34,468 nucleotides of DNA from Alphaproteobacteria bacterium. GTDB lineage: Bacteria > Pseudomonadota > Alphaproteobacteria > CAAHEQ01 > UBA3637. The translations under genes and the position numbers were made by a program. The stretch's first letter is position 1, and each line of letters begins with the position of its first letter. Below are positions 14 to 27,480 of the stretch, in pieces. Below the pieces are notes generated by a model. It was not told the origin of the DNA, made no database searches, and saw only the letters and a list, made by a program, of their open reading frames with translations. The stretch spans positions 1 through 34,468 of the forward strand of contig JAGCFA010000042.1 in assembly GCA_017650375.1 (NCBI GenBank). Direction: 5' to 3'.

Positions 14-1246
14 GTGTGGGGAAAGATGATGGATACCTACGCACAACGTCGTCAAAGCTCTGATGAAAAACAACAAGCGAATAAAACGGATGGTTTGAAA
101 AAAACGCTGAAGGAAAGATATGCAGAAAGCAATACTGCTTGGTCTATCGGGCGAGATATTATGATGGATGTTTACTCTAATCCTGAAAATTGGGGAAGCG
201 TTAAATCCGGGGAATCTTTTCCTTTGTGGAAAGACCAAGAGGTTTTATTTGAACAGCAATGGGATCAATTTTATGAAAAACTGAATGCTTCTTATGGCGC
301 TCCTTTAAAAGGGCGTCCAGCTGTTGACGAAGAAACACGTCATAATGCACAGAAATACGATACTGTTTTGGCGGCGCATAAAGCATATGTGGCTAAAATT
401 AGCGCAGGAAAGGATAAAAACAAAACAGCTATTGCTTCTGCAAATCCACCACGCGCTCCAAAACCATTGCCCAAATGGCAGGATATTGTAAAAGTTGATC
501 CTCTTTCTCGACAGGTAATTCCTGAAATGCCAGAGCCGTGGAAGCAAATGGCTGAAAATAATTTTGAAAATTATTCAGGCAGTGGGGAAATGGGCGTTTT
601 CTTTAATGGAAAGACGTTACAGCCCACAGCGCAAGCAACTGCAGGTGGGAAGAGTGAGCTGGAAACAGAATATGAAATGAACTTGGCCCTTGATTCTTTG
701 GACAAGGGGGCCTTAGGAACTGCAGAACAACAAAACAAGATGGTTAAACCTTTTGTACAAAAGCTGTCTAAGGTTGGTATCCAAATGCCTGATTTTGATA
801 TTTCGAATCGAGCGCAATATCTTTCTGTTCAAAAACAGTTAAAAGAAATGAAAAAACAAGCCATAATAGAAGCTTATCAATATGTGGATTTGTTGGAAAA
901 ACAAGATAAAGAAGAACCTGAATTGGTGGCAAAACGCTCTAAATTACAGGCGGCAAAACAGGCTCGCTTATCTGCTGAAGCTCAGAACGAAACAAAGGGA
1001 TTGGGAGATGTGATCCAAATTCAGCAAATGTCCCCTGTAAGTCAGCAAAGACTTGTTTTATCTGCCCTTGAAAAAGATGAGTATGCGACGGTCTTTTTGA
1101 CAGAAACAAATGCTATAAATGTAGATCAAATGATGCGTGAACAGGAAGCAACAGATAAGATTATTCAAGAATCTTTTCAACAAGTTGCAGATAGCATGGA
1201 TAAACAGCGTGAGACTATACCAGAGATACGTAAGTGTCAATTCTGA
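14..1246 (+). CDS. Hydrophilic coiled-coil protein of unknown function immediately upstream of the T4SS genes. It may be 5'-truncated by the window edge, for example the C-terminal extension of a VirB6-like protein
   Basis: Long ORF with no TM segment or signal peptide. It is K/E/Q-rich, with a Pro-rich patch (ANPPRAPKPLPKW) and a coiled-coil-like C-terminal half. The frame stays open back to nt 2, so the gene may start upstream. Alternatively, GGGGA (18-22) followed by ATG at 26/29 could be a genuine start. The ORF ends 16 nt before the first virB8 paralog. Confidence 0.6.
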   Translation: MWGKMMDTYAQRRQSSDEKQQANKTDGLKKTLKERYAESNTAWSIGRDIMMDVYSNPENWGSVKSGESFPLWKDQEVLFEQQWDQFYEKLNASYGAPLKGRPAVDEETRHNAQKYDTVLAAHKAYVAKISAGKDKNKTAIASANPPRAPKPLPKWQDIVKVDPLSRQVIPEMPEPWKQMAENNFENYSGSGEMGVFFNGKTLQPTAQATAGGKSELETEYEMNLALDSLDKGALGTAEQQNKMVKPFVQKLSKVGIQMPDFDISNRAQYLSVQKQLKEMKKQAIIEAYQYVDLLEKQDKEEPELVAKRSKLQAAKQARLSAEAQNETKGLGDVIQIQQMSPVSQQRLVLSALEKDEYATVFLTETNAINVDQMMREQEATDKIIQESFQQVADSMDKQRETIPEIRKCQF

Positions 1247-1262: not shown

Positions 1263-1871
1263 ATGGCACTCAGGAACCTTAGCGCTGAACGTCGTTTTTA
1301 TATCAGTCTGATTGCGGCTGTTTTACTGTTGATTTTATTGGTTTTGAATTGTTTAACAGCCCTTCAAACTGGGGGAAAGTTGCAGGTTATTGCTCAATTT
1401 TTTCCCGCTAATTTGCGTGAATTCTCTCATTTGAATACCCTTTCTGCTCTTGATTCTGTGCGGAAAAGAAGAGATCGTGAAAAAATAGATGAAATGTTGG
1501 TGCGCTACTATCTGGAAATGCGCTATACGCAAATTCCGGACAGAAACGAGATGCTCTATCGATGGGGTAGAGGAGGGCCTTTGTACCTCCTTTCGTTGCC
1601 CAGTTTATACGCAGAATTTGTGAAGGATTTTGATCACAAGCTTGAATCTATCAGAAACGTTCAGACAATTAAGATTATTAAAGTGGAAAAAGATCAAGAT
1701 AATGTTTTCAGAGTGAATTTTTTTATCTATGAACATATTCCACAGAAAGCACCTATTGAAAAGGAAAAAACAGCAACCATTACTTTCGGATATGAACCCA
1801 AAAGAATCAGACACTCATCTGTTTTTTCAAATCCATATGGTTTGATGGTTATTCGTTTTCATGAAAGCTAA
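1263..1871 (+). CDS. virB8: VirB8-family T4SS inner-membrane protein, divergent paralog 1 (short N-terminus)
   Basis: Bitopic layout with one N-terminal TM helix (ISLIAAVLLLILLVLNCL) followed by a ~150-aa periplasmic domain. It shares blocks with the downstream canonical VirB8: MLVRYYLEMRY/LIREYILARY, RNEMLYRWG/EVENRWG, and the C-terminal SNPYGLMVIRF versus TNPLGFVVTSF (VirB8 NPxG signature). Confidence 0.8.
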   Translation: MALRNLSAERRFYISLIAAVLLLILLVLNCLTALQTGGKLQVIAQFFPANLREFSHLNTLSALDSVRKRRDREKIDEMLVRYYLEMRYTQIPDRNEMLYRWGRGGPLYLLSLPSLYAEFVKDFDHKLESIRNVQTIKIIKVEKDQDNVFRVNFFIYEHIPQKAPIEKEKTATITFGYEPKRIRHSSVFSNPYGLMVIRFHES

Positions 1872-1953
1872 AAAAATAAATGAAGGGGGATTGACTATTC
1901 ATGTTTTTTTGTGTTAAACTGAAGAAGTATTCATTTTTAAGAAGGAGAGTGTA

Positions 1954-2130
1954 ATGAAAAAAATAAGTTTATTGTTGATCGTATTGGGGCTTTTTGTTTT
2001 GGTTGCCTGTGCATCTGAATATGAAAAAGAACCTGTCGGCATTGGCTCAAATTATTCAGAGTTAAAGCGTTCTCCTTGTGCTTGTTTGGAATTAAAAAAA
2101 GCGCCACAACTGCCTAGTTGGTTGACCTAA
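1954..2130 (+). CDS. virB7: VirB7-like small outer-membrane lipoprotein (58 aa, below the ORF-track cutoff)
   Basis: My translation is MKKISLLLIVLGLFVLVACASEYEKEPVGIGSNYSELKRSPCACLELKKAPQLPSWLT. It has a signal peptide plus lipobox L-V-A-C (Cys19). A strong SD, AAGGAGAG (1941-1948), sits upstream of ATG 1954. The gene lies between two virB8 genes and just upstream of virB9, which is the expected VirB7 slot. Two additional Cys residues occur in the mature part. Confidence 0.6.
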   Translation: MKKISLLLIVLGLFVLVACASEYEKEPVGIGSNYSELKRSPCACLELKKAPQLPSWLT

Positions 2131-2143
2131 AGAAAGAAAAAAA

Positions 2144-2848
2144 ATGGTCCAGCAAAACGAAGAAAAAACGACAGAAACTTTAAAGGAAGAGCGCTATATT
2201 TGGATGGCTAGATCTTTTTCTTTGGTCGCTTTTTTGGCGTTGTTGGCGAACATTTTTATGATAGTTGCTTTGTCTGGATTAACCCCTTTGGTTCGCGTGC
2301 AGCCGTTTTACCTGATTACCCAGAGTAAAGAACAGCAGGTTGTTTCTGTGGAACGTTTTTCCAGTTTGAAAACGAAAGATTTACAGCAATCGCTTATTCG
2401 TGAATATATATTGGCCAGATATGGTATTTCTTCTGATAAATCAGAGGTGGAAAATCGATGGGGGGTTAACGGGCTTGTTTTTGCGATGAGTACAGATCCC
2501 GTATATCAAGATTTTACACTCAATGAATCAGAAGCTCTTTTAAGACGTATGGATGAAGAAGGATTAACCCGTAATGTTAAAATTAAAAGCGTTGTTCCCT
2601 CTCGTCCTCGGTCAGATGGGCGTTATATTTGGAAGGTTGAAATGGACACAATTGATATGAGCCAAAAAGCGGGGGATAAGTTTACGCAATCTTGGACAGT
2701 TTCTTTGGCTGTTGATTTTTTGCCGACACAATCTATGAACTGGGATAAAAGATTAACAAATCCTTTGGGCTTTGTGGTGACCAGTTTTGGTCGGGTTCCT
2801 TCTGAAGATAGAGCAAAAATCTTAAGAGGCTATGATTTTGGAGATTAA
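2144..2848 (+). CDS. virB8: VirB8 T4SS inner-membrane protein, paralog 2 (canonical)
   Basis: Cytoplasmic N-terminus, a single TM helix (FSLVAFLALLANIFMIVALSGL) and an NTF2-like periplasmic domain ending in the VirB8 signature NPLGFVVTSF. Expected family is PF04335. Confidence 0.9.
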   Translation: MVQQNEEKTTETLKEERYIWMARSFSLVAFLALLANIFMIVALSGLTPLVRVQPFYLITQSKEQQVVSVERFSSLKTKDLQQSLIREYILARYGISSDKSEVENRWGVNGLVFAMSTDPVYQDFTLNESEALLRRMDEEGLTRNVKIKSVVPSRPRSDGRYIWKVEMDTIDMSQKAGDKFTQSWTVSLAVDFLPTQSMNWDKRLTNPLGFVVTSFGRVPSEDRAKILRGYDFGD

Positions 2849-2965: not shown

Positions 2966-4642
2966 ATGAAAAAATCGATTTTTTGTCCGTTTCTTAAGGG
3001 GAGTCTTATTGCTTTTCTAATGGCTTTTTCAGCACAGGCTCAGGTTCAAACACCTACTGATACAGAAAGTGCTATGATGTTGGATGCCATCAACCAAACC
3101 GCTGGTTCTTTTGATCAGGTGGATTTGGGTTATATTCATTCTTTGGGTATGCAACAAAAAGCATGGAATAATCCGATGGAACACTTGGGAGAAGGGCAAA
3201 CAAAGCCGGGATATTCTCGCTATAATTGGATGCCGGATACCGTTCTTCCTATCCGTTTGCGTGAAGGAATGATGACTTTGATCAATTTGCCTGCATGGGA
3301 ATTAATTGAGAAAGTTCATATCGGATCCCCAGAATCTTTCGGCGGGGAAATTGTGGCGCCGAATTCTTTGTTGCTGTATGCAGATCCGTCCTATATCGGT
3401 GTTGATAGTAATATGATTATTTTTGGTCGCTCTGGCAATCGGTATGTTTTTTACTTGCGCAGTGAAACCTTTAATACAGATAAAATTACTCAGTCTGTTG
3501 TGGATGTTTTAGTTGGTCCACGCTGGACACCTGTTGCTGATGGTGGTCAGATGGCAGAGGCCAACGGAGCTAGTTCAATGGCCGCAGCACCTAACCCTTC
3601 CAGTGGATTGACTACAAACGGAGCACGTTCGAACGTTGCCAGTTCTGCAGGGCCTAAAGATTGGTTGAAAACAATTCCTATGGATCCAGAAAGTATTCGT
3701 TTTGATTTGGATATGTTTATCCCGAATCCGGATGATGTGGATATTGCACCGGATAATATTTGGCGTGATAATATATTCACCTATATTGATTTGGGACCAA
3801 AAGCTTTGACAATGACGCAACGTCCCATTGTTACTTCTTTGGAACAAGGGACAGAAGTGCCGGTCGGATATCGCACCTCAGGCCCTAACAGTCGCTTGAT
3901 TGTTGTGGAAGCAATAGGGGATCTTGTTTTGCGTAATGGTAAAAAAATTATTTGTATTAAATTACGCAGAGATCCTGCTGCAGGATTAGAATATACAGAT
4001 TACAGCGGTTCTGTTTCAAACAACCAGAATTGGAATGGAATGCCGACCAATCCTGGGTTAGCTAATCCGTATCAATCTGACAGTGCACTGCTGGCGGGCG
4101 GTGGTGCTGTGTTGTATGATGCAGTTGAACCGGCAACTTCTTCAGGACTGAACCCGTACACATCGGTTAGAACTGAAAGAAATCACGGTTTGTATGGAAA
4201 TGAAGTAGCTCCTTATTGTTATGATGGCAAAATGTCAGGTCGTTGCTCCAACAAGAATGCAGTGAATGGATGGCAAGATCTAAGGGCAATTCCGAAAGAA
4301 GCTCGTCAATCTGTGCAAAATCAACAAGCTGTTCAAGATATTATTTCTTATAATTCTCAGGCCATTACACCGCTTGAAGGTGGGGAATCTATTGCTTTGG
4401 AATTTGGCACTGGGTTACAAATTTCAGAGTTAGAATCTCTGTGGAATAAAATTTACAGCAAGAATAAGGATATTTTGACAGGCTATGAACCGTATTATTC
4501 TGTAGATGCGACAGCAGATGGTGATGTGATGGAACTTTTCCGTTTGCGTGCGGGGATGGTGAAAGATGTATCGACAGCAGATGCTTTGTGTCGTAAAATC
4601 GGTCGTCGAGGCTTTTCTTGTTCTGTTGTTCGTATTCAATGA
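2966..4642 (+). CDS. virB9: VirB9/CagX/TrbG-family T4SS outer-membrane core protein with a long C-terminal extension ending in a SPOR-like domain
   Basis: The likely start is ATG 2966 after GGAGGA (the track begins at TTG 2954). Signal peptide MKKSIF...AFSAQA|QVQ. N-terminal VirB9 domain (YSRYNWMPDTVLPIRLREGMMTLINLP...NRYVFYLRSE). C-terminal VirB9 beta-sandwich (IWRDNIFTYIDLG...RLIVVEAIGDLVLRNGKKIICIKLRRD). About 220 extra residues follow. Confidence 0.85.
   Translation: MKKSIFCPFLKGSLIAFLMAFSAQAQVQTPTDTESAMMLDAINQTAGSFDQVDLGYIHSLGMQQKAWNNPMEHLGEGQTKPGYSRYNWMPDTVLPIRLREGMMTLINLPAWELIEKVHIGSPESFGGEIVAPNSLLLYADPSYIGVDSNMIIFGRSGNRYVFYLRSETFNTDKITQSVVDVLVGPRWTPVADGGQMAEANGASSMAAAPNPSSGLTTNGARSNVASSAGPKDWLKTIPMDPESIRFDLDMFIPNPDDVDIAPDNIWRDNIFTYIDLGPKALTMTQRPIVTSLEQGTEVPVGYRTSGPNSRLIVVEAIGDLVLRNGKKIICIKLRRDPAAGLEYTDYSGSVSNNQNWNGMPTNPGLANPYQSDSALLAGGGAVLYDAVEPATSSGLNPYTSVRTERNHGLYGNEVAPYCYDGKMSGRCSNKNAVNGWQDLRAIPKEARQSVQNQQAVQDIISYNSQAITPLEGGESIALEFGTGLQISELESLWNKIYSKNKDILTGYEPYYSVDATADGDVMELFRLRAGMVKDVSTADALCRKIGRRGFSCSVVRIQ
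4385..4639 (+). other. SPOR-like peptidoglycan-binding domain at the C-terminus of VirB9
   Basis: ESIALEFGTGLQISELESLWNKIYSKNKDILTGYEPYYSVDATADGDVMELFRLRAGMVKDVSTADALCRKIGRRGFSCSVVRIQ. This matches the alphaproteobacterial SPOR pattern: (Q/E)hG.....A...W..h.....hL.g..P.......g...hhRLR.G.......A..LC..h...G..C.VV. Confidence 0.6.
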
Positions 4643-4654: not shown

Positions 4655-7600
4655 ATGGTAAATAATCGGGAAAGTTTATCAGAACAATCAAAACGGCGTA
4701 CCAACTATCTGTTATTTGGGGTGGGTAGCGTTTTGCTTTTGTTCTTTTTGCTGGCGTGGTGCAGCATGCAGCCCGAAGAAAAAACAGAACGTCCTCGTGA
4801 GAATCCTGATGTTTTTAACCTTTATAGAGAAGGGGGAGATCCTGGAAAAGATGCTGATATGCCTGTTTTTGCCTCTCAAGGAGATGCACAGTTAATTATT
4901 ACACCACGAGAAGTGGTGATGGATAAAGTCATCATCGGTTCAGAAGTAGCTCATTCTGTTGTTTTGAGGGCGGAAAATGCCCCCTTATTGCTTAAGAAAA
5001 AGGAATTGGCAGAAAAAGACCAAAAAGAAGGTTTTGACTTGGGTGGTTCTTGTATGTCTCTGGATCGTTTGGAAAAGAACGAAGAATGTCTTTTAAAAGT
5101 TTCTTGGCATCCGACAGAATTGCGTAATATTCAAAATACCTTAACAATTACTTGGATTGAAGACAGCCGTTCCGTTTTTAAAGAAGAACGTTCTGTAATT
5201 ATTTTAAAAGGACAATCCACAGATTCTAAAGACTGTGTGATTTGTGAAGATATTCGTAAAGAGGCTGAACAGATTCCTGAAAAAAAACTCGGGACAAACG
5301 GAAAAGAAGAAAATTTAAATGGTGACGAAAAGAAAACCGCAGATTGTTTGATTAAGGATGACGATGATAAGATCATTGGTATTTGTCGTGGAGAATTAAT
5401 CCCCTTAAGTTTGAAGAATGAGTTATTAGGGAAAGTAGATGATAGTCATAATGTTATAGATGCAAATGGTCAAAAAATAGGTCGTTTGTTAGGAGATGAT
5501 ACCATTGTCAATTCTAAATTTGAAGTGATTGGGAAAGCCATTCCTTCTGTATTGACGGCCATGAAGGGAAATGGGCGCGTTTTTGGTAAGATTTCTGTTG
5601 ATAATAATGGTGTTTCTATTATTGATGCTAATGGAAAGATATTGGGTTTTCCCAATATTGATGGTCAGGTTGTAGATAAAGACGGTCAACCTATTGGTTT
5701 TTTAAGCCCTTGGGGCGGTGTCATTGATTCTATGGGGAACTTTTTGGGTGTAACGATGCCAGATGGTTCTGTGTTAAATGATAAAAATGAACGTGTAGCC
5801 TATATGCGTCCGATGGGATTGGCTGTTGATTCAAAGGGTATTTTGGTTGGGGGAATCGTGCCCCGTGGTATTGGTGTGGGAATTGGTCGCTCTTTAGGTG
5901 AAGTTTCTCTGAATGGGGATGTTAAAGATTCTTTCGGACAAGTTGTCGGACGGGTTTTGTTGGATCACTCTGTGGTAGATGCTCAAATGAATGATTTAGG
6001 TCGTGTGGTGCGCCAAGGGGTTATTATTGATACAAACGGCCAAGTGATTGGTTTTGTAAATTCTATAGGAGAAGCAGTTAATTTTGAAGGTAAGATTATT
6101 GGTCATGTTAGACCTGACGGGACTGTTTTTGCGGGTAAAAGATTTGTAGGATCTGTTATGAAAGAAGGTCGCGTTATCAAAGATGGTTGTCAGCAGATTG
6201 GGTCAGTTTATCCAGATGGTTCAGTGGTAAATTTGGCTTTAACAAAATTAGGCAATGTGACGTCAGAAGGAATTGCTTTGGATACTCGTCATCAGAAATT
6301 AGGTTTCATTTCTCCTTGGGGAACGGCGATTGCTAGTGGATGTCATTTGTTGGGACTATTGTCCTTAGATGGGGATGTAGTTTCGGTTGATGGAATGAGA
6401 ACTGGCTGTGTAAATTCGGATTTATCAGTTCAGAATTTACAAGGGGAAATATCTGGTCAAGTGACGCGTTTGGGATTGTTTGTGGACAATCAAAATCAAG
6501 TGATTGGGCGCGTGCGTTTAGATGGTCAGATTATGGACAATAAAGGAACAATTATCGGATGTTCATATGAAGCAAAAAAACATCCTGGTGTTCTTGTTTC
6601 CGATGAAGCACAAGGGGTCATTGTGGATGAAAATGGTCTTCCCTTAGAGGGGACTTTTATTGGGAATAAGGCTTATGACGAACGAGGGAATTGGTTGGGA
6701 AATGTTTATTTTAACGGTTGGGTTATTGGTGATAAAGGTAAGCTGATCGGACGTGTTCCTTTCTCTGGACTTGTGTTTGATGATAAAGGTCAAATTTTAG
6801 GCTCATATAATCAGAAAACAGGAACTTTGGTGGATACATCAGGGGATCGTTTGGGACGTGTTTTACCAGGCCTTTCAGTGATTAGTTTGGATGGAAAAGC
6901 TATTTTAGGAAAACTGATTCCTTTTGGAACGCCTTTTGTTGCTATGGATGGTACTTTTTTGGGCAATTTACGTTCGGATGGTTTGGTTGTAGATGGGGCA
7001 AAGTCTGTTGATGGAACGCTGTTGGCAAATGGTTCGATTATTGGTAAAGACAAAAAGCTGTTGGGGGGGATGATTTCTGCTGGACCAGTTATCGCCAGTG
7101 ACGGAAAATATGTTGGATTGTCTGTTGGCAACGGAGAAGTTGTTAATGCTCAAAATGTGAAGATTGGGCGTATGTTATCTAATGGATTAGCCATTTCAGA
7201 TGCCAACCAAGTTTTAGGACATGTTTTCCCAGAGCTTTCAATAGCTGTTTCAGCACGTGGTTTCATTGGCTTTTTAGAACCAAATATACAAGGAAGCCAA
7301 GATAATCCGTCGTACCAGTTACAGGTTAAAGATACAAAAGGAAATATGGCAGGAACGGTTTCCAGTACAGGTGTTGTTTTAGGGTTAAATAACACTGTTT
7401 TAGGGAATTTAGTGCCTGTAGCTCCGTTTGTTGATGGCAAAGGAAAATTGATCGGCTGGTCAAATTTTGAAGGTGGTGTTAATAATTTAGATGGGCGTTC
7501 CATTGGAACAGTTTTGCCTTCAGGAGCAGCTTTGGATAGTTCTCAAGATTTGTTTGCCAGCGTTGTGAATAATGCTGTTGCCGTGGATAATTTTGGGGCG

Positions 7601-10600
7601 TATTTGGGGCATTTTAACAGTCGCGGAGAAGTTTTGTCTGATCGAGGTGAACTTATTGCTCGTATTGGTCAAGGTGGTTTCCTTTCTAATGCAGACGGTA
7701 TGCTAATCGGTCAGGTTTTAAAACCTGGTGTAGCTGTTGATAACAGTGGTCGTTTTATGGGATGGACACGCTATGATGGCCAGATTGAAAACGGTGTTCA
7801 GGTTGTAGGACAAGTTGGTTTGGATGGTCATGTGTTTGATGCTGCTGGTCAAATGGTTGGCCGTTATTTACCGTTGGGAACGCCGGCCTTTAATGATGAT
7901 GAAAAGTCAGTAGGTTTCTTATCAGATAATGCTGAAGTAATGGATGCAGCCGGATTAAAATTAACCAAAATGGGATACGAACCTTTTGTAATGAATAAAG
8001 GGAACTTGGTTGCTCGGTTTATAGAAGGTGATAATTTCGTGACTTCTTTGGAACAAGGTGAAGTGATTGGAATGACAACCAATGATGGCTCTGTTATTCC
8101 TTTGACTTCTGATCGTTCTGTCGGATCGCTTAAAATGAATCGTCAATTCCTTTCTTCTCGTCAGATTAAAGGGGCTTTAGTTCCGATGGGTGTGCCGGTG
8201 ACACCAACGTTGGGAGTGATCGGCAGTGCAGAATTAAACGGGGAAATATTTAAGGCAGGAAAGCGTTCCGGAATTATAACTGGGATGGGATTGGTATATT
8301 CTCCATCCGGAGAATTAGTGGGAAGTGTTTTAACCCCAGGTGTTATCATTGATTCTAAAGGGGCTTTTGTTGGCCGTAGTTCTGGTACATCAGCGGTTTT
8401 TTCGGGCAATCAACAAATCGGTAATCAGTTAACCTTTGGTGCAGTTTTATCCACTTCCAATGAATGGCTAGGACATTCTATGAAAACGGGGGCTGTTGTT
8501 AATGCTCACGGTGTTTATCAAGGAATTATTGGTTCTAATGGATTGGCTGTTGGTCCAAATGGTGTTTTTGTCGGGCGTGTTTTGCCAGATGGATCAGTTG
8601 CCAGTGTATCTGATTCTTCAGTGTTTAATACAATGCCTTATATTGGTCATACAGTAGAACAAGGAATTGCTATAGAGTATTCAGAGAAAAATACTTCTTT
8701 GGGACATACAACAGCTAACGGTGATGTACTGGATTGGGGTGGCAAAAAAATCGCTCGTATTTCTGATAATGCTTTGGCTTTAGCTAGGAAAGAAGATAAA
8801 ACATTGCCATCGGCTCATATTTTCCCACTTATTTCCGCTATAGATGTTAAGGGAAATGTGATGGGAACAGTAACGTCAGATGGCCGTGTAATCTCTTATA
8901 AAGGTAAGGTCCTAGGAAAACTGGATAATGGGGGCCGTATTCGTTATTTAGAACCAAAAGATAAAGAAGAAAGTTTGAAAATCTTAGGGACAATTGTTCC
9001 AGACGGATTGGTTGTGAATGATTGTAAAATTGTGGGGCAAACGGCATATGATGGTCGAGTAATCAATGGCCAAGGTGTTGTTGTTGGGCGAATTAATACT
9101 GATAAATGGGCAATTGATGTCAATGGTAATAAAATTGGTCGTGTTGCTAAAAATAACCAACCTTGCATTACGGAAGATGGTAAATATTTAGGGCGGAGTT
9201 TGCCTAATTCTATTGTTGTTGATGTAAATGGGGTCCCGGTCGGATGTGCAACAAATTCAGGAGAGATGTTGGATTCTAAAGGCAATTTGCTCTGTAAGAT
9301 TGTTGAAAGAGGGCCTATTGTAGATGGTAATGGAGATATTATTGGTTATCAAGATGACAAAAATTGGGTATGGGATGGTGGGAAAGAACCCATTGGAACA
9401 GTGGATTGGGATAATAAGGCCTGGGATAATAATGGAAACCAAATTGGTATTGGAATTGGCGATCGGACTCTTTTAGATGGAGGTAATACACAAGGAGGAG
9501 ATGGCTGGATTTATAATAAAGAGGGAGAGCCTGTTATCTGGATAAACCCCGACACAGGAAATGCGGAAAATCCGGATGGCGTCGCAGGACTTCATAACTA
9601 TGTTTTGGGAAGAGGTTACTTTGAAGGATGTGATTTTATGGGCTTAGATGGGCGTAAGGTTGCGACGTTGATGGCTGATGGGACGATGCGTGATGAAAAT
9701 GGAGATTTATATGCAACGGTAACACCCAATGGAGATATGTATGAACCCAATGGTAATTTGATTGATCATATTCGTGGATTGGATGTATCCACTCAGTTGA
9801 AACAATGTGGGATGTCTGGTGCCGGAAAAGGGGCTAATCGTATTGTTAAAATTGGTGATCAGCCATTTTTTGTGGATCCCAAAGGTTCTGTCTATAACGA
9901 AGATAATGAAATTATCGGTTGGATGGGCGATGATGGTAAATTATATACCTTTAATAACAAGCCTATTACAGGGGATGTTGGTGGACGCAAACCGCCAGAA
10001 CCTCAAACCGTTGATATTCCAAAAGAAAAGTTAGAGGATTTTCAATCTCGTTTAGCAGAAAAACGCAAGAGTATGCGTGAAAAGTTTGGTAAGGGAACCT
10101 TGTTGATTCCGTCGCCGGAATTGCAAGCACGTGCTAAACCTAAAAAAGATACAGATTGGTCAAAGTTGGGTGTGAGTAAAGATTCTGTTTCAAGTTGGCC
10201 TGTAGATATGACCCATGTTATTTTAGAAGGAAAAGCTATTCCGGCTGTTTTGGCGCGTTCAATCGATTCTCGTTATCCGGATAGTTCCGCTTTGGCGATT
10301 GTTGAAAAGAACGTTTATGGGGAAGAAGGACGTAATATCTTGATTCCGGCAGGCAGTCGTTTGATCGGACAAGCAAGTACCGGACTCAATGCAGCTGGTG
10401 TGGCTAAGATTCAAATTAATTGGAAACGATTAATTCGTCCGGATGGATCAGCCTTTAATTTGGATGATTCGCCTTCTGGAGACGCACAAGGACGTGGTGG
10501 CGTGGCTGCATATCTGGATGCACAATTATGGAATAAATATGCAACGCCTGTTTTGTCGACTTTAGCAACTTCAGCAGTGGCTTATATGATGGCAACCAAT

Positions 10601-11077
10601 GATGATGTGACCACATCTAGCGGTGGTAGTAATGGTCAGCAACAGACGATGTCTCAGAAAGCACAAGCAGCAGCTGATGCACGTAAAAACTTTATTGATA
10701 TGATTCAAATTATTCTGGAAAAAATGATTGAAGAAGCAAATGAAGAACCTCCTGTTATTTATGTGCCAGCAGGAACACGGTTGGTTGTTTTCCCGAAAAA
10801 GGACTTGTGGCTGCGTTCTGTTACGGATGATGAAAAAGATGCCGAAAAGGAATTTGGACCACCTTCTACTGAAGCGCAAGTGCCAGATATGGATTCATGG
10901 GCAGAAAAGAGAAAATCTGAACGGGAAGAACAAGGGGCTTCGGAAAATACAGATGGTGCTTCTGAACAGGTTCCTCCAGATACGGTGGCACCGATTTATA
11001 ACGGGCAAGAAGATATGCCTGATTTGTCTGACAGAAAAGTGATGCCAGTCACGCAAGAAGATAAAAATATGTTTTAG
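4655..11077 (+). CDS. virB10: Giant VirB10/TrbI-family T4SS core protein (2140 aa) with an internal repeat expansion
   Basis: N-terminus: short basic tail plus TM helix YLLFGVGSVLLLFFLLAWC. C-terminus (nt ~10150-10815): TrbI/VirB10 barrel blocks AIPAVLARSIDS, NILIPAGSRLIGQ, INWKRLIRPDGSAF, GRGGVAAYLD, the two antenna helices (NKYATPVLSTLATSAVAYMMA and QKAQAAADARKNFIDMIQIILEKMIE), and VIYVPAGTRLVVFPKKDLWL. An acidic ~85-aa tail follows. It sits between virB9 and virB11 as expected. Confidence 0.9.
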   Translation: MVNNRESLSEQSKRRTNYLLFGVGSVLLLFFLLAWCSMQPEEKTERPRENPDVFNLYREGGDPGKDADMPVFASQGDAQLIITPREVVMDKVIIGSEVAHSVVLRAENAPLLLKKKELAEKDQKEGFDLGGSCMSLDRLEKNEECLLKVSWHPTELRNIQNTLTITWIEDSRSVFKEERSVIILKGQSTDSKDCVICEDIRKEAEQIPEKKLGTNGKEENLNGDEKKTADCLIKDDDDKIIGICRGELIPLSLKNELLGKVDDSHNVIDANGQKIGRLLGDDTIVNSKFEVIGKAIPSVLTAMKGNGRVFGKISVDNNGVSIIDANGKILGFPNIDGQVVDKDGQPIGFLSPWGGVIDSMGNFLGVTMPDGSVLNDKNERVAYMRPMGLAVDSKGILVGGIVPRGIGVGIGRSLGEVSLNGDVKDSFGQVVGRVLLDHSVVDAQMNDLGRVVRQGVIIDTNGQVIGFVNSIGEAVNFEGKIIGHVRPDGTVFAGKRFVGSVMKEGRVIKDGCQQIGSVYPDGSVVNLALTKLGNVTSEGIALDTRHQKLGFISPWGTAIASGCHLLGLLSLDGDVVSVDGMRTGCVNSDLSVQNLQGEISGQVTRLGLFVDNQNQVIGRVRLDGQIMDNKGTIIGCSYEAKKHPGVLVSDEAQGVIVDENGLPLEGTFIGNKAYDERGNWLGNVYFNGWVIGDKGKLIGRVPFSGLVFDDKGQILGSYNQKTGTLVDTSGDRLGRVLPGLSVISLDGKAILGKLIPFGTPFVAMDGTFLGNLRSDGLVVDGAKSVDGTLLANGSIIGKDKKLLGGMISAGPVIASDGKYVGLSVGNGEVVNAQNVKIGRMLSNGLAISDANQVLGHVFPELSIAVSARGFIGFLEPNIQGSQDNPSYQLQVKDTKGNMAGTVSSTGVVLGLNNTVLGNLVPVAPFVDGKGKLIGWSNFEGGVNNLDGRSIGTVLPSGAALDSSQDLFASVVNNAVAVDNFGAYLGHFNSRGEVLSDRGELIARIGQGGFLSNADGMLIGQVLKPGVAVDNSGRFMGWTRYDGQIENGVQVVGQVGLDGHVFDAAGQMVGRYLPLGTPAFNDDEKSVGFLSDNAEVMDAAGLKLTKMGYEPFVMNKGNLVARFIEGDNFVTSLEQGEVIGMTTNDGSVIPLTSDRSVGSLKMNRQFLSSRQIKGALVPMGVPVTPTLGVIGSAELNGEIFKAGKRSGIITGMGLVYSPSGELVGSVLTPGVIIDSKGAFVGRSSGTSAVFSGNQQIGNQLTFGAVLSTSNEWLGHSMKTGAVVNAHGVYQGIIGSNGLAVGPNGVFVGRVLPDGSVASVSDSSVFNTMPYIGHTVEQGIAIEYSEKNTSLGHTTANGDVLDWGGKKIARISDNALALARKEDKTLPSAHIFPLISAIDVKGNVMGTVTSDGRVISYKGKVLGKLDNGGRIRYLEPKDKEESLKILGTIVPDGLVVNDCKIVGQTAYDGRVINGQGVVVGRINTDKWAIDVNGNKIGRVAKNNQPCITEDGKYLGRSLPNSIVVDVNGVPVGCATNSGEMLDSKGNLLCKIVERGPIVDGNGDIIGYQDDKNWVWDGGKEPIGTVDWDNKAWDNNGNQIGIGIGDRTLLDGGNTQGGDGWIYNKEGEPVIWINPDTGNAENPDGVAGLHNYVLGRGYFEGCDFMGLDGRKVATLMADGTMRDENGDLYATVTPNGDMYEPNGNLIDHIRGLDVSTQLKQCGMSGAGKGANRIVKIGDQPFFVDPKGSVYNEDNEIIGWMGDDGKLYTFNNKPITGDVGGRKPPEPQTVDIPKEKLEDFQSRLAEKRKSMREKFGKGTLLIPSPELQARAKPKKDTDWSKLGVSKDSVSSWPVDMTHVILEGKAIPAVLARSIDSRYPDSSALAIVEKNVYGEEGRNILIPAGSRLIGQASTGLNAAGVAKIQINWKRLIRPDGSAFNLDDSPSGDAQGRGGVAAYLDAQLWNKYATPVLSTLATSAVAYMMATNDDVTTSSGGSNGQQQTMSQKAQAAADARKNFIDMIQIILEKMIEEANEEPPVIYVPAGTRLVVFPKKDLWLRSVTDDEKDAEKEFGPPSTEAQVPDMDSWAEKRKSEREEQGASENTDGASEQVPPDTVAPIYNGQEDMPDLSDRKVMPVTQEDKNMF
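5360..9980 (+). repeat. Protein-level tandem array of degenerate 16-18-residue repeats inside virB10, on the order of 80 units. Consensus approx G-x-[VI]-[VI]-D-x-x-G-x-x-[IL]-G-x-[VL]-x-x-[DNP]
   Basis: Consecutive units can be read directly, e.g. DGQVVDKDGQPIGFLSPW / GGVIDSMGNFLGVTMPD / GSVLNDKNERVAYMRPM / GLAVDSKGILVGGIVPR / GDVKDSFGQVVGRVLLD / HSVVDAQMNDLGRVVRQ / GVIIDTNGQVIGFVNSI / GEAVNFEGKIIGHVRPD. The period persists to ...GSVYNEDNEIIGWMGDDGKLYTF. The underlying DNA is diverged: I saw no long identical nucleotide repeats by eye. Confidence 0.8.
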
Positions 11078-11087: not shown

Positions 11088-12077
11088 ATGAGTACTTTGT
11101 CAATTTCCGATACATATAAAGTTTTAGAAATGACCTTAAGGCCGATTGCTTATTGGTATTCTCAAGATAATGTGGAAGAAGTGGCTATTAATAATCCAGG
11201 AGGGATTTGGCTTCGTTTAAGGGGAAAACATGCCCACCCTTGGCATTATTATGAAGATCCTAAATTAACGCGTGAATATTTAAATGATATTATGTATATC
11301 ATCGCCAATACATATGATTTGAACTATGATCCTGTTGGGGGAATTCCGGTCGTATTTGCAGCTTTGCCGGGCGGACATCGTTTTTCTGGGATTGCTGGAC
11401 GTAATGTGATGTATGATAATGATGATTTAACCGGTGGGGTGGCTATGGCCATTCGTGTTTATCGGGAAGATTTAGGTATCAGTATGGAACAGTTTGGGCT
11501 GGTTCAAGGCGGTCGGCTACGCCAAATCAATAAGTTAAAGGATGTGGAAGATCCAGATGATCCTTATGAACGGTTAATTTTGTCAATCAGACGCGGTGAT
11601 CATATTTTGATTAGTGGTGCAACTGCGACAGGTAAAACGACTTTTTTGAATAATATGATTAAGTTATTGGATGAACATAAGCGCATTTTAACTATTGAAG
11701 ATACGCGGGAATTGATTATTACTCAGCCTAATCGTGTGCATATTGTAATGCCTAGAACGGAAGCAGCAAATACGTTTACCTATAAAAACGTGATTGATTT
11801 GGCTGTGCGTTTTACACCGGATTGTATTATTGGTGGGGAAATTTCAACAACAAATGCGGGGGCTCTATGGGAATTGATGGGCTCAGGGCATGACAACTGT
11901 TTTGCCACTATCCATGCGGAAAATCCGGATGCAGCTTATAAAGCTTTTATCGGACGTATTATGCATACTTATCCGGCGATGGATCGGGATAAGCTTTATA
12001 AAGAAATGAAAGAAAAATTGCGTGTAGTTCAGATTAATCGCGATGGCAATATTCGTGCGATTACTGAGATTACTTAA
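11088..12077 (+). CDS. virB11: VirB11 T4SS traffic ATPase
   Basis: SD AGGAGA upstream. Walker A GATATGKTT, Asp box/Walker B region ILTIEDTRELI, His box GSGHDNCFATIHA. Typical length of 329 aa. Expected family is PF00437. Confidence 0.95.
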   Translation: MSTLSISDTYKVLEMTLRPIAYWYSQDNVEEVAINNPGGIWLRLRGKHAHPWHYYEDPKLTREYLNDIMYIIANTYDLNYDPVGGIPVVFAALPGGHRFSGIAGRNVMYDNDDLTGGVAMAIRVYREDLGISMEQFGLVQGGRLRQINKLKDVEDPDDPYERLILSIRRGDHILISGATATGKTTFLNNMIKLLDEHKRILTIEDTRELIITQPNRVHIVMPRTEAANTFTYKNVIDLAVRFTPDCIIGGEISTTNAGALWELMGSGHDNCFATIHAENPDAAYKAFIGRIMHTYPAMDRDKLYKEMKEKLRVVQINRDGNIRAITEIT

Positions 12078-12088: not shown

Positions 12089-12622
12089 ATGGTGCCAACG
12101 CTTTATATTTCCAGAACACCTGATGGAGAAGGTTTACCTCTTCCCAGCTATGAATCAAAGAACCATATTGCTTTAACATTACAGGCTGCTATTTCTATTC
12201 CTGTTCGATTAAAAGCGGGTGAACGTGCTTATGTTCCTGTGGGTTTTGCAATTGGGATTCCCAATGGTTTTTGTGGACAAGTGGTGAGTTTACCTAAATT
12301 AGCACGAGCAGATGGAATAGTTGTTTCTGATGCTCCTCATATTTTGCATCCGGCAGACAGGAACCCACTGTTTGTTTTACTCAGAAACACGTCCGAAAAT
12401 GACTTTGTTTTACACCGTGGTGTTGTGTGTGCACAGTTGGTTATTTTCCCCGCAGTTCAAGTAACATGGAAGGAACTTGAACGTCATGTTAATTCTTCTT
12501 TGACATCAACAGATGAAATTTTATTGGATGAAGCAGAAGAAGAAGTTGTTGATGCAATGGCACCTTCAGCCAGGCGTGAAGTACGTTCAATTCGTAATCG
12601 GTACAAGAAAAATGAAGAATAG
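12089..12622 (+). CDS. dUTPase-fold protein with degenerate catalytic motifs (probable pseudo-enzyme), translationally close-coupled to virB11
   Basis: Collinear with trimeric Dut: LPLPSYESKNHIALTL versus FPLPTYATSGSAGLDL, VPVGFAI versus VPTGLAI, and VCAQLVIFP versus RIAQMIFVP. The motifs are lost. Motif I D is replaced by T (IALTL). Motif II PRSG is replaced by SLPK. Motif III GLIDSDYQG is replaced by HILHPADRN. The Gly-rich motif V is absent and replaced by an acidic-then-basic tail (EAEEEVVD...RREVRSIRNRYKKNEE). SD AGGGGGA. The gene starts 11 nt after the virB11 stop. Confidence 0.7.
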   Translation: MVPTLYISRTPDGEGLPLPSYESKNHIALTLQAAISIPVRLKAGERAYVPVGFAIGIPNGFCGQVVSLPKLARADGIVVSDAPHILHPADRNPLFVLLRNTSENDFVLHRGVVCAQLVIFPAVQVTWKELERHVNSSLTSTDEILLDEAEEEVVDAMAPSARREVRSIRNRYKKNEE

Positions 12623-13082
12623 TTTTGTGTTTTTTCTTTTGTTTGTCCTTTCCACGCCTGTTTTAGGGGCAGAATATGCTTCATTGAAATACGATAAGGT
12701 GAACTTGCGTACGGGGCCGGGGGAACGCTTTCCGATTTTATGGGTTTATCAGGAAAAAAACTTTCCGGTTGAAGTGTTGGACAGCTTTGAAATTTGGCGT
12801 CAAATTCGCGAAAAAGATGGCACGCTTGGTTGGGTACATCAAAATATGTTGAAAAAAACACGTTATGCTATTGTTGAACGGGAAGCTTCTCTTTTAAAAA
12901 AAGATGATCCTCAAGCGCCGGTTGTGGCACTGGTTCAACCGGGAGTGATTGCTAAGGTTGAGGAATGTCCAAAGGGAAATTATTGTCGGATCAGCGTATC
13001 AGATGAAACTCATGCCAAAAAAGGCTGGTTTTTGCGTTCAAACCTATGGGGATTGGACAAAGGCGAAATTATTGAACGTTAG
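12612..13082 (+). CDS. Secreted bacterial SH3-domain protein (COG3807-like)
   Basis: The likely start is ATG 12612, which overlaps the upstream stop. Signal peptide MKNSFVFFLLFVLSTPVLGA. Two SH3b-like segments (VNLRTGPGERFPILWVY...GTLGWVH and ASLLKKDDPQAPVVALVQPGVIAKVEEC...GWFLRSNLWG). Confidence 0.7.
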   Translation: MKNSFVFFLLFVLSTPVLGAEYASLKYDKVNLRTGPGERFPILWVYQEKNFPVEVLDSFEIWRQIREKDGTLGWVHQNMLKKTRYAIVEREASLLKKDDPQAPVVALVQPGVIAKVEECPKGNYCRISVSDETHAKKGWFLRSNLWGLDKGEIIER

Positions 13083-26353: not shown

Positions 26354-27469
26354 ATGGAATTAAATTTAAAGAAAAATCTGTTTCGTTATGGTAAAAATGA
26401 ATCCTTAACTTTTGGGGTTATTCTTGCTTTGATTTTTTTTGATATTTTGATATGGAATATTATATCAATGGGGATGATCAGCGTTGATTATCGTTTTGCA
26501 GATAACAATAATTGCTTGTCTCAAGTGGGAAGCGTTTTAAATCGTGATATTCCAACATTTTCGCACTATTCTATCAAAACAGGAAAGTATTGTACCTTGT
26601 TTCAACATGAATATAATAAGGCTGCACGGAATGAAATTGTTATAGAACTTTCAGGTCAAATTCAAAAGACACAGAAGGATATTAACCAACTTGATAGAGA
26701 AATCAGAACAAACAGACGTTCTTTAGAAGGAAATGCGACAGCCTATGGTTTGGCTATTCAAGAACAAAAAGGGCTTGATTTAGCTTATACGGAAAAACTG
26801 AAACAAATTCAAGAACAAGAAAAATTGCTGGAACAAATGAAACAAGATTTGGAACAGCAAAAACAAGTTTTTAAAGCGTTGCCAGCTGTTCAAAAATTAA
26901 CGCAATATGCACGTCAAAACAGCTCTTCCATATCTGATAGATATCATTTTATGAAAAGATTGGATTTATTTTTGAGTTATATTTTTGCGATGCTGTTTGT
27001 TCTTATCTTGATTCCTGTTTTCGCACTGTTGCGTCACAGATTGATTAAAAAAGAAAAATACATTCGATTATTGCTTGTTAATCATGTTATTTTAATGGCT
27101 GTATTGCAAGGTATTTATATCACTGTTTGCTTTATTTTACATATTCTTCCAGAGACCTTATTGCGTCATTTGATTCGGTTTTTTCAATCGTTTCATTTGA
27201 TGGCATTGTGGTATTATATCGCAATATTTTTATTGTTCTTGTTGTTTGCAGGGGGTGTTTATTTTTTGCAAATAAAAGGCAGACGTCGAAATTTGTACAA
27301 AAAGCTGATTAAAGGGAAGTGTTGGAGTTGTGGAGCTCGAGTGCTTGATAATGATTTTTGCTTTTCTTGTGGAGAAAAGCAGATGCGCATTTGTTCGCAC
27401 TGTCACAAAAAAACATATATTAAAATGCCGTATTGTCGATTTTGTGGTCGAGAGTTACCAGAAAAGTAA
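26354..27469 (+). CDS. Membrane protein with an extracytoplasmic coiled-coil region and a C-terminal double zinc ribbon, function unknown
   Basis: TM1 (FGVILALIFFDILIWNIISMGMI), a ~160-aa Q/E/K-rich coiled coil (QIQEQEKLLEQMKQDLEQQKQ), three more TM helices, then CWSCGARVLDNDFCFSCG...CSHCHKKTYIKMPYCRFCG (4 x CxxC). Confidence 0.8.
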   Translation: MELNLKKNLFRYGKNESLTFGVILALIFFDILIWNIISMGMISVDYRFADNNNCLSQVGSVLNRDIPTFSHYSIKTGKYCTLFQHEYNKAARNEIVIELSGQIQKTQKDINQLDREIRTNRRSLEGNATAYGLAIQEQKGLDLAYTEKLKQIQEQEKLLEQMKQDLEQQKQVFKALPAVQKLTQYARQNSSSISDRYHFMKRLDLFLSYIFAMLFVLILIPVFALLRHRLIKKEKYIRLLLVNHVILMAVLQGIYITVCFILHILPETLLRHLIRFFQSFHLMALWYYIAIFLLFLLFAGGVYFLQIKGRRRNLYKKLIKGKCWSCGARVLDNDFCFSCGEKQMRICSHCHKKTYIKMPYCRFCGRELPEK

Positions 27470-27480
27470 CTGACGATAAA

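Follow-up and report, generated by a model that had tools for sequence, protein, structure and literature searches.

We have identified, in a stretch of alphaproteobacterial DNA of 34,468 nucleotides (the whole of which is called the window here), an intact gene for a VirB10 protein of 2,140 aa, in which some 1.6-1.7k extra residues (about 1,650) lie between an N-terminal membrane anchor and a C-terminal outer membrane barrel. The protein is probably the envelope-spanning VirB10 of a chromosomal, vertically inherited and expanded VirB-type (type IVA) secretion system (T4SS), in which a long array of beta-hairpins is built into a periplasmic ring or cage of very large size. Such a giant beta-hairpin VirB10 would represent a third route, after CagY and DotG, to an oversized secretion machine. 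The gene and its modules are as follows:

4655..11077, + strand: giant VirB10 open reading frame, 2,140 aa, ATG start, intact
4703..4768, + strand: single N-terminal transmembrane helix, aa 17-38 (hydropathy scan; AF2 helix aa 8-37)
4886..5224, + strand: ASH/PapD-like Ig beta-sandwich, aa 78-190 (AF2 pLDDT 80-90; Foldseek)
5234..5245, + strand: CxxC motif C194/C197 in the segment STDSKDCVICE (invariant in alignments of 11-73 sequences)
5282..9949, + strand: beta-hairpin array, aa 210-1765 (Pfam, period, DSSP)
10022..10093, + strand: linker helix, aa 1790-1813 (AF2 DSSP)
10187..10816, + strand: TrbI/VirB10 C-terminal beta-barrel, aa 1845-2054 (Pfam TrbI, PDB matches, Foldseek)
10523..10744, + strand: two-helix antenna, aa 1957-1981 and 2001-2030, with a low-confidence loop between (AF2 DSSP)
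10817..11074, + strand: acidic C-terminal tail, aa 2055-2140, mostly disordered (net charge -14)

An earlier note on this DNA had read the frame as a single VirB10 with its end modules in place, and the present analysis bears this out. The hydropathy scan has its sole peak at aa ~15-40, behind a cytoplasmic tail of 16 aa, and together with AF2 locates the helix within a few nucleotides of the position proposed earlier (nt 4710-4770). The barrel with its antenna, expected at nt ~10150-10815, is likewise found almost exactly there in the AF2 model, followed by the acidic tail that had been described, the last residues of which, the terminal Phe included, are conserved across the family. The C-terminus, for which a test against the TrbI profile had been proposed, matches Pfam TrbI over aa 1856-2053 with 120 bits against a cutoff of 35 (E=1.2e-34). 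Sequence matches of the barrel in the PDB include ComB10, Xanthomonas VirB10, TrwE and TraF, and Foldseek (prob 1.0, TMt 0.5-0.64) retrieves TrwE, X. citri VirB10, CagY, TraF, ComB10, F TraB and DotG; by sequence or fold, every barrel of the VirB10 family with a solved structure is matched. The score against the NCBIfam VirB10 equivalog is 113.6 with a cutoff of 220, and that of the neighbouring VirB9 against its own equivalog is likewise far under the cutoff, which marks the system as very divergent. The protein is nevertheless a genuine VirB10/TrbI in its sequence, fold, topology and gene context, and it carries the automatic NCBI annotation "TrbI/VirB10 family protein" (MBO7483877.1). With the canonical members (TrwE of R388, TraF of pKM101, X. 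citri VirB10 and ComB10; 380-480 aa) it shares the topology, the TrbI domain, the antenna and the gene neighbourhood; unlike in these, most of the Pro-rich periplasmic linker has given way to the extra residues. The replacement of the linker claimed earlier therefore holds for the greater part only, as a short Lys/Pro-rich linker (aa 1771-1844, by composition) remains in front of the barrel, surrounding the linker helix.

The insert proved to be composed as the earlier note had it, of an Ig-like module and a repeat array. The Ig domain (conserved residues C133 and C145) matches CEP192 (6fvi), HYDIN (2e6j, TMt 0.71), 7ptb and pilus chaperones in Foldseek at prob 1.0, and Pfam ASH/Cep192_D4 below threshold; a profile search identifies it as a unit of a widespread tandem Ig repeat. 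The CxxC region that follows is disordered in the AF2 model. Altogether, 10 Cys residues are near-invariant in the family alignments of VirB10, which is compatible with a periplasmic location.

The array contains ~85 hairpins of 17 aa each (consensus about PVIDGDGKLLGRVNSDG), ~1,550 residues in all, at a period of 17 aa and with no super-repeat seen. DSSP counts 170 strands in the AF2 models, where pLDDT is mostly 85-95; the two AF2 models are confident, with pLDDT 84.6 and 78.3 and pTM 0.74 and 0.63. Pfam Bflower_2 matches the array in 11 stretches (183.7 bits against a cutoff of 38, E=9e-55), with matches spread along its whole length, and Pfam Bflower matches at E=3e-13. Judged by these profiles, the repeat is of the beta-flower/DUF3659 hairpin type, already catalogued in Pfam clan CL0395, which unites the beta-flower families and the Tubby C-terminal domain. 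As in the beta-flowers (PF21784, PF21785, PF21786) and DUF3659 (PF12396), each hairpin turns at a [DNEQ]xxG tip, and its strands are very short. The beta-flowers described so far are single domains of small size (~96 residues), and some are lipoproteins or enclose a helix, whereas here ~85 hairpins follow one another without interruption within a T4SS subunit, and the likeness is at the level of the hairpin repeat. The hairpins may close into separate 4- or 5-fold flowers, pile up as a rod or build a single continuous superstructure. The paper that defined the beta-flowers does not mention a link to T4SSs. Of the novelty claimed for the architecture, the repeat type must accordingly be subtracted; for the giant beta-hairpin VirB10 itself no published description was found, and it appears to be undescribed so far.

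The structural matches of the array raise another possibility, namely that the hairpins wind up to enclose a hollow cocoon, as in teneurin, Rhs and TcB-TcC proteins, around a cargo or a part of the channel. The top Foldseek matches of the array are indeed the teneurin YD shell (8fia, E=6.6e-10) and the Rhs cores of T6SS (7pq5, 8qjb), and precomputed Pfam RHS_repeat matches exist in ~15 homologues. The TM-scores of these matches are, however, <=0.10 with rmsd 30-37 Å and probabilities 0.1-0.8, so that the likeness is local and confined to the hairpin. The strands of the array have 3-5 residues, as in beta-flowers, Bflower_2 is by far the strongest Pfam signal, and the protein in the window has neither an RHS match nor a toxin or autoprotease domain. 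We consider a shell of this kind very improbable.

The DNA comes from a short-read metagenome assembly, and genes rich in repeats are easily mis-assembled; an erroneous assembly, a gene fusion created by sequencing errors or a pseudogene in decay had to be considered. This explanation is effectively refuted. A frame of 2,140 codons cannot arise by chance at 40% GC, and the homologues are equally long, which shows the ORF to be real. The identical product of 2,140 aa occurs in at least 4 independent assemblies, and collinear full-length homologues exist in >100 species. A search of the virB10 DNA for tandem or long direct repeats found none, the repeats being degenerate at this level (none >60 nt at 72% identity). 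Relatives are present in 133 GTDB species genomes; in the 80 loci analysed the match extends over most of the VirB10 length, and the homologues have a median length of 2,192 aa. Among the protein clusters listed, 116 of 120 exceed 2,000 aa, at >=82% query coverage and 27-57% identity. Nearly all carriers are labelled as uncultured gut or rumen Alphaproteobacteria, probably with reduced genomes. The giant VirB10 is thus not a one-off; it is under selection and forms a large family in gut Alphaproteobacteria, found in >100 species.

The gene is embedded in a cluster with the conserved order VirB8, VirB7-like lipoprotein, VirB8, VirB9, VirB10, VirB11, preceded by one further conserved gene:

14..1246, + strand: u520, C-terminal part; 520-aa Sec-signal protein (tblastn, 55/80 loci)
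1263..1871, + strand: VirB8 paralogue a, 202 aa, divergent (Pfam VirB8 E=1.4e-6, above the gathering score)
1954..2130, + strand: 58-aa lipoprotein, lipobox LVAC (71/80 loci, median 62% identity)
2144..2848, + strand: VirB8 paralogue b, 234 aa (Pfam VirB8 E=1e-19)
2966..4642, + strand: enlarged VirB9/CagX, 558 aa (Pfam CagX aa 88-336, E=2e-13)
4400..4639, + strand: SPOR (peptidoglycan-binding) domain at the VirB9 C-terminus (Pfam SPOR)
11088..12077, + strand: VirB11 ATPase, 329 aa, last gene of the cluster (NCBIfam VirB11 E=3.7e-42; Pfam T2SSE)

The conserved genes of the core cluster begin with u520, which has no Pfam match and is complete in loci L001 and L083. The two VirB8 paralogues share 20% identity (E=1e-7), and paralogue a is found in 71 of the 80 loci. 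The small lipoprotein belongs to no Pfam family; from its position and size we infer that it is VirB7-like. VirB9 (76/80 loci, median 56% identity) has a C-terminal extension of ~220 aa. Pfam SPOR matches the tails of all 16 family VirB9 proteins (16/16, best E=9.4e-8), the copy in the window falling just below the cutoff (E=0.0011). VirB11 is the most regular companion (79/80 loci, median 75% identity). Upstream of the cluster are six co-oriented Sec-signal proteins without a known family. Genes for VirB2, VirB3, VirB4, VirB6 and VirD4 are absent from the cluster and from the 10 kb around it in the 80 loci. The neighbours are genes for an aminoacyl-tRNA synthetase, an M48 peptidase, dut, dnaJ/K, typA and proS, and the cluster is chromosomal as seen from these flanking genes.

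With one end of VirB10 held in the inner membrane and the other at the outer membrane, the array of ~172 kDa would sit in the periplasm. At the 14-16 copies per machine that are usual in other T4SSs, from which the stoichiometry is assumed, it would add ~2.4-2.8 MDa, and, if a ring is likewise assumed by analogy, it may surround the translocation channel as a large ring, sleeve or cage. The SPOR domain of VirB9 would tie this structure to peptidoglycan, and the secreted proteins encoded upstream would probably decorate it. The array would then be a functional analogue of the periplasmic rings of CagY/CagX and DotG/DotH/DotF, built from a different, all-beta repeat. Host targeting, named in the earlier note for CagY and DotG, would for this machine likewise be an extrapolation.

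CagY of the Helicobacter pylori Cag T4SS (~1,900 aa) is similarly a giant VirB10 with an N-terminal anchor and a C-terminal barrel, and its barrel structures (6x6k, 6x6s, 6odi) superpose on the present one (Foldseek prob 1.0). Both have an enlarged VirB9 partner (CagX ~520 aa, 558 aa here), and both systems are chromosomal and include system-specific extra proteins. Beyond the barrel there is no sequence similarity between the two proteins. In the available account of CagY, its repeats are rich in Cys and helical, and they are specified by long direct repeats in the DNA whose recombination modulates function. The array described here, by contrast, is made of all-beta hairpins, lacks recombinogenic DNA repeats and has a register that is fixed across species. 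DotG (IcmE; ~1,050 aa) of the type IVB Dot/Icm system of Legionella and Coxiella is another inflated VirB10 in an expanded machine, and shares the C-terminal domain that makes up the outer membrane dome (Foldseek 9ngw and 7muq, prob 1.0). Its insert consists of pentapeptide-type repeats, and no Pfam Pentapeptide match is present in the array, so that the earlier view of a repeat unlike either CagY or DotG was correct. The present protein is twice as long as DotG, and its system, with VirB8, VirB9 and VirB11, is VirB-type rather than type IVB.

The repeat region of CagY has been reported outside the outer membrane, which sets a precedent for a module of surface contact or adhesion. In that case, the array and the Ig domain would be partly or wholly external and serve in contact sensing or in binding a target cell, possibly host epithelium, a protist or a bacterium. 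Ig domains of the ASH/PapD kind and long arrays of beta-repeats are features typical of adhesins, the ~1,560 folded residues of each chain far exceed what a normal periplasm crossing takes, and organisms that probably have reduced genomes may rely on partners. Yet a chain anchored in the inner membrane and terminating in a barrel at the outer membrane is periplasmic by default. The Gly columns are invariant along the entire array across the family alignments, array length and register are conserved in >100 species, the register being kept down to 27% identity, and conservation of the array stays at a uniform 30-42% throughout, contrary to diversifying selection. A register kept so strictly, in DNA free of recombinogenic repeats, speaks for a fixed scaffold and against a surface that varies antigenically, and we regard a surface module as unlikely.

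A scaffold could also act as a spacer or ruler, that is, a rigid strut by which an unusually large or reinforced distance between the membranes is set or bridged, with VirB9-SPOR pinning the machine and no ring chamber being formed. VirB10 is the sole T4SS subunit that bridges both membranes (PMC12857230). The tightly conserved length and the SPOR domain on VirB9 are in keeping with this, and the high pTM of the models suggests a rigid body. Fully extended, however, ~85 hairpins would by our estimate measure tens of nanometres, well past typical periplasms. This alternative, which we hold to be as doubtful as a surface module, overlaps with the periplasmic ring or cage, and the two may be compatible.

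Among the Alphaproteobacteria, a close parallel is the rvh T4SS of Rickettsiales, in which RvhB10 is of ordinary size. Hallmarks of rvh are duplication of VirB8 and VirB4, a second VirB9, multicopy VirB6 and the lack of VirB5 (PMC11077975). In the present locus no second VirB9 is seen, and VirD4 does not follow VirB11. The two systems nonetheless have in common that they are VirB-type, chromosomal, lineage-wide and vertically inherited, with VirB8 duplicated and, presumably in the present case too, the remaining T4SS genes located elsewhere.

The 2,140-aa giant VirB10 encoded in the window is a member of the VirB10/TrbI family: it has the domain, the fold, the topology and the gene context that define the family. 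Its gene is an uninterrupted ORF of 2,140 codons with an ATG start (window 4655-11077, plus strand). The TrbI domain (PF03743) was matched at aa 1856-2053 over positions 2-188 of the 188-position profile, scoring 120.2 bits against a Pfam gathering score of 35. VirB10 and ComB10 are the top NCBIfam models, both under their equivalog cutoffs (113.6 bits for T4SS_VirB10, where the equivalog-domain cutoff is 220); the barrel is divergent, and the low NCBIfam score does not contradict membership at the level of Pfam and fold. Hydropathy shows one peak only, at aa ~15-40, giving a single TM segment behind a short cytoplasmic N-terminus, i.e., a bitopic topology. The gene has virB9 on one side and virB11 on the other, within a virB-type cluster, an arrangement kept in 76-79 of 80 fetched loci that bear a relative. 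AlphaFold2 (AF2) was run on two overlapping slices of 1,100 residues with 35-sequence family alignments, and both models are confident (aa 1-1100, mean pLDDT 84.6 and pTM 0.74; aa 1041-2140, mean pLDDT 78.3 and pTM 0.63). They give the following order of modules.

Modules of the giant VirB10 (plus strand; amino acid numbers of the product; from AF2 unless stated)
aa 8-37: TM helix
aa 39-75: disordered, acidic, Pro-containing linker
aa 79-189: beta-sandwich (Ig-like)
aa 191-205: disordered stretch with an invariant STDSKDCVICE/CxxC motif (AF2 and alignments)
aa 210-1765: run of short strands without a break, the hairpin array (AF2 DSSP)
aa 1790-1813: linker helix
aa 1845-2054: barrel with two long antenna helices (aa 1957-1981 and 2001-2030) and a low-confidence loop between them (AF2 DSSP)
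aa 2055-2140 (window 10817-11074): C-terminal tail, mostly disordered, acidic, net charge -14 (AF2 and composition)

In Foldseek searches of the PDB, the C-terminal domain matched all solved barrels of the VirB10 family, with probability 1.0 and TMt 0.5-0.64: TrwE (8rt6, 7o3j), X. citri VirB10 (6gyb), CagY (6x6k, 6odi), TraF (3jqo), ComB10 (2bhv), F-plasmid TraB (7spc) and DotG (9ngw, 7muq). The sandwich retrieved ASH/PapD-like Ig domains, also at probability 1.0 (CEP192, 6fvi and 7ptb; HYDIN, 2e6j, TMt 0.71; chaperone-usher chaperones), and a search of viral structures returned generic Ig-domain matches only. The earlier note had placed a TM helix, an Ig-like module, a repeat array, a TrbI barrel and an acidic tail along this ORF; ORF calling, Pfam, hydropathy and composition show all the coordinates it gave to be right to within a few tens of bases, and both the full-length TrbI match and the Ig-like fold bear it out. 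By composition, the Pro-rich periplasmic linker is reduced to short stretches at aa 39-77 (12.8% Pro) and aa 1771-1844 (9.5% Pro), and the remaining linker space is taken by the Ig domain and the array. No match to aa 1-1815 was found in a PDB sequence search, and when the N-terminal 235 aa were used in a profile search, no short VirB10 with the same N-terminus came up; all matches were giants, obvious fragments or unrelated proteins with several Ig domains. Ten Cys are near-invariant in the predicted periplasmic part (C133, C145, the CxxC pair C194/C197, C512, C563, C585, C636, C1457 and C1531), which suggests conserved disulfides or a redox or metal site. The tail is poorly conserved overall, yet it ends family-wide in a conserved motif, ...R.V.PV.P.......LF, with a terminal Phe, that may be a docking or assembly signal.

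The repeat of the array is the catalogued beta-flower/DUF3659 family, at a scale and in a context without earlier description. Counted by DSSP, the array holds 170 strands, that is ~85 hairpins, with a unit of 17 residues made of a strand of 5, a turn of 4, a strand of 3 and a loop of 5; a self-built 17-aa hairpin HMM caught just 27 of the ~85. The autocorrelation of residues has its peaks at 17, 34, 51 and so on in steps of 17 and falls off monotonically. No added peak marks a super-repeat of 4, 5 or 6 hairpins (68, 85 or 102 aa), which makes one hairpin the unit of evolution. Its consensus from the HMM is PVIDGDGKLLGRVNSDG, and both the semiconserved [DNEQ]xxG hairpin tip and the short strands that are hallmarks of beta-flowers are present. 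Bflower_2 was matched in 11 stretches (183.7 bits against a Pfam gathering score of 38, E=9e-55) and Bflower at 50.5 bits against 25 (E=3e-13). Closure of a beta-flower (CL0395) takes 4, 5 or 6 hairpins in a shallow barrel, the “flower”. In the paper that describes the fold (Durairaj et al., 2023; PMC10584680), which nowhere mentions T4SSs, it is a shallow barrel ~96 residues long with ten short strands, and PF21784, PF21785 and PF21786 were added to Pfam in the Tubby clan. When fifteen slices of 200 aa were scanned with Pfam, Bflower_2 and DUF3659 came up in every slice from aa ~300 to ~1600, with HMM registers that slide along the array, so that the slices define no flower boundaries. The array may be organized as discrete flowers, as a stacked rod or as a continuous superstructure; the high pTM of the models suggests a rigidly packed body, not loose beads.

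The best Foldseek matches of the array in the PDB are YD/Rhs shells (teneurin 8fia, Rhs 7pq5 and 8qjb), as would be expected if the array formed an Rhs-like shell. However, with TM at most 0.10 and rmsd above 30 Å, the likeness holds at the level of the hairpin only, and the protein has neither the global YD-shell fold nor any match to the RHS_repeat HMM, leaving such a shell very improbable. The beta-flower array has a Gly content of 15.6%, a mildly acidic net charge of -31 and 12 Cys. In the DNA that encodes it (window 5001-10000), GC skew is 0.23-0.40, mostly well above that of the neighbor genes (~0.13-0.21); Gly/Val-rich (GGN/GTN) hairpin codons would explain this, and a replication signal is not needed.

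A protein identical to the giant VirB10 is listed by NCBI as MBO7483877.1, [quoted passage not shown], and gene calling gives this 2,140-aa product on contigs of at least four different ENA assemblies. When 5.8 billion proteins were searched, 137 relatives came up at E <= 1e-10. Among the 120 matches listed of these, 116 exceed 2,000 aa (maximum 2,609) with at least 82% query coverage and 27-57% identity, the other four measure 1,527-1,888 aa, and all 120 combine TrbI with beta-flower-type hairpin domains (Bflower, Bflower_2 and/or DUF3659). The median length in the family is 2,192 aa. GTDB species genomes hold 133 loci with a relative, of which 80, matched over most of the protein length, were fetched. 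An artefact has practically no chance in the face of identical products in several assemblies and full-length relatives in many species genomes. The giant VirB10 is thus a real and recurrent protein. The fetched loci come from uncultured MAGs of the gut or rumen of human (Hadza, Nepal, UMGS, HGM), goat, sheep, yak, roe deer, buffalo, horse and rabbit, and nearly all are labelled Alphaproteobacteria, with a few Holdemanella, Lactobacillales, Pseudomonadota and Rhodospirillaceae. Three loci (L030, L035 and L043) are from MAGs labelled Holdemanella biformis or Lactobacillales; wrong binning or labelling of these contigs is probable, since both the gene and the genes around it match the alphaproteobacterial family. 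In alignments of 13, 35 and 73 members the hairpin register is kept from end to end, dozens of Gly columns are invariant, and insertions are limited to a few sites. Tandem Repeats Finder detected no tandem repeats in the array DNA, and the longest direct DNA repeats in the gene are 54-60 nt at 70-72% identity. The repeats exist at the protein level only and, with the register kept, the array is therefore ancient and fixed.

To our knowledge, massive inflation of VirB10 is known in two lineages only, Cag and Dot/Icm, the flagship host-injection machines. CagY has helical, Cys-rich repeat modules built from long direct DNA repeats, and recombination between these modulates cagY function; the array described here is all-beta in the models, has no such DNA repeats and shows no sequence match to CagY outside the barrel. 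DotG/IcmE has a pentapeptide-repeat center and is encoded among Dot/Icm genes in a type IVB set, whereas the giant VirB10 has no Pentapeptide match in Pfam and has VirB8, VirB9 and VirB11 as neighbors. Because the defining repeat features of both were looked for and are absent, assignment as CagY-type or DotG-type was ruled out. Literature searches on giant or large VirB10, beta-flower, DUF3659 and RF32 T4SS, and the 2025 T4SS nomenclature review, yielded no description of the architecture, and databases list the protein under automatic names only. The earlier note had seen a repeat type unlike those of CagY and DotG, had proposed that the protein would make a novel T4SS variant, had named an assembly artefact as a refuting outcome and had left the phyletic range to database searches; on repeat type and novelty its view stands, the assembly holds, and the range proves wide. 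The giant VirB10 is a third, independently evolved inflation of VirB10 and defines an apparently clade-wide expanded T4SS of gut Alphaproteobacteria.

The giant VirB10 belongs to a cluster that lies on one strand in the source genome. Its upstream part was read from L083, a locus of the same genome that extends beyond the window; the upstream proteins are named by their length in amino acids.

Gene order in the cluster (one strand)
L083 2579-9984: u789, u310, u285, u272, u268 and u520, six co-oriented genes, all with Sec signal peptides
window 14-1246: end of u520, the last of these six
window 1263-2848: VirB8a (202 aa), a 58-aa lipoprotein and VirB8b (234 aa)
window 2966-4642: VirB9 (558 aa)
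window 4655-11077: giant VirB10
downstream of the giant VirB10: VirB11

The system is chromosomal and on no obvious mobile element, because housekeeping genes bound the cluster on both sides (class II aminoacyl-tRNA synthetase, M48 peptidase and LemA upstream; dut, an SH3 protein, dnaJ, dnaK and others downstream). The block from u520 to VirB11 is kept in 55-79 of the 80 loci. The genes beyond u520 are paralogous, carry Sec signals, encode largely helical proteins and vary in number between species (95 ORFs in 53 loci, the ~270-aa ones being paralogues). The upstream secreted proteins have no match among Pfam families or PDB sequence profiles, and are candidate system-specific components of the core complex, of a pilus-like structure or of the secreted set. 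A complete functional T4SS of the VirB/D4 type would have the VirB4 ATPase, VirB6, VirB3, VirB2 and, optionally, VirD4 in its genome; none of these was found in the cluster or, in the 80 loci, at a distance of up to 10 kb. VirB9 is double the normal size and has a C-terminal extension of ~220 residues that ends in a SPOR domain (window ~4400-4639), recovered in 16 of 16 family members tested (best E 9.4e-8; the window copy, at E=0.0011, falls just short of the threshold). This unusual fusion suggests, from domain content, an outer-membrane complex pinned to the cell wall. VirB8a and VirB8b are distant paralogues (20% identity, E=1e-7), and the lipoprotein between them (lipobox LVAC) shows 62% conservation between species. 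Chromosomal, lineage-wide and with VirB8 in duplicate, the system brings to mind the rvh T4SS of Rickettsiales with its duplicated RvhB8; here the pair flanks a small lipoprotein, and the locus has one VirB9. Hallmarks of rvh are duplicated RvhB9 and RvhB4, multicopy RvhB6 and the lack of VirB5 (PMC11077975). We have not filed the system as rvh, the likeness resting on the duplicated VirB8 and on locus-level data.

VirB10 gates the T4SS channel. It is the one T4SS subunit that bridges both membranes (reviewed in PMC12857230), and because the N-terminus of the giant form would be anchored in the inner membrane and its barrel placed at the outer membrane, the ~172-kDa array would be periplasmic. 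Exposure of the array on the cell surface, as an adhesin or contact sensor, appears unlikely. With 14-16 copies of VirB10, a periplasmic array would add ~2.4-2.8 MDa, most likely in the form of a large ring, sleeve or cage round the channel, tied to peptidoglycan via the SPOR domain of VirB9 and possibly completed by the upstream secreted proteins. Such a structure would be the all-beta counterpart to the rings that Cag and Dot/Icm have in the periplasm. The fixed register and length of the array suggest a precise geometry; that it serves purely as a spacer or ruler we consider improbable. A more far-reaching proposal can be made. Multiplied by the ring stoichiometry, the array could form a class of T4SS superstructure not seen before, either a multi-MDa all-beta chamber in the periplasm or a tube that traverses the envelope or lies outside the cell. 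This superstructure would be the third independent “expanded” T4SS architecture and the signature organelle by which an order-level clade of reduced-genome gut Alphaproteobacteria found in humans and livestock attaches itself to partner cells or injects into them, be they host epithelium, protists or other bacteria. In this full form the proposal is doubtful.

The identity of the host clade bears on such a role. In the ruminant RGIG catalogue, the novel Proteobacteria are mostly Alphaproteobacteria, and 38 high-quality genomes of the order RF32 average 1.59 Mb and have lost amino-acid biosynthesis extensively (PMC8199421); Rs-D84 and RF32 MAGs from the rumen have likewise been called functionally reduced (PMC8992543). 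A tentative assignment of the giant-VirB10 clade to RF32 or Rs-D84 is plausible, because many of the loci come from RGIG, whose novel Alphaproteobacteria include RF32. If it is true, a dedicated machine for cell-cell interaction would fit a partner-dependent lifestyle. The third inflation of VirB10 is larger than those of Cag and Dot/Icm and uses a different, all-beta repeat, and its fixed geometry in more than 100 uncultured gut species of humans, ruminants, horses and rabbits suggests a specialized secretion organelle in abundant, unstudied and probably partner-dependent commensals. Its size, fold and breadth of conservation would surprise a T4SS specialist. For the structural biology of T4SSs it provides a new architecture and a concrete target to solve, for the recently defined beta-flower fold a first clear functional context, and for microbiome research a marker gene and a candidate interaction machine for an uncultured clade.

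Two observations concern the genes downstream. The dut-like gene (window 12089-12622), whose dut match is under the NCBIfam and Pfam cutoffs, overlaps the gene of the SH3-domain protein (12513-13082 in the ORF list; the public gene call starts at 12612). The stretch at window 26354-28579 encodes a 371-aa protein that carries a double zinc ribbon at its C-terminus and, after it, a 324-aa protein that matches the ART-PolyVal ADP-ribosyltransferase domain (E=8e-9, over the cutoff); the two may form a pair of toxins or effectors and lie ~15 kb away from the T4SS genes.
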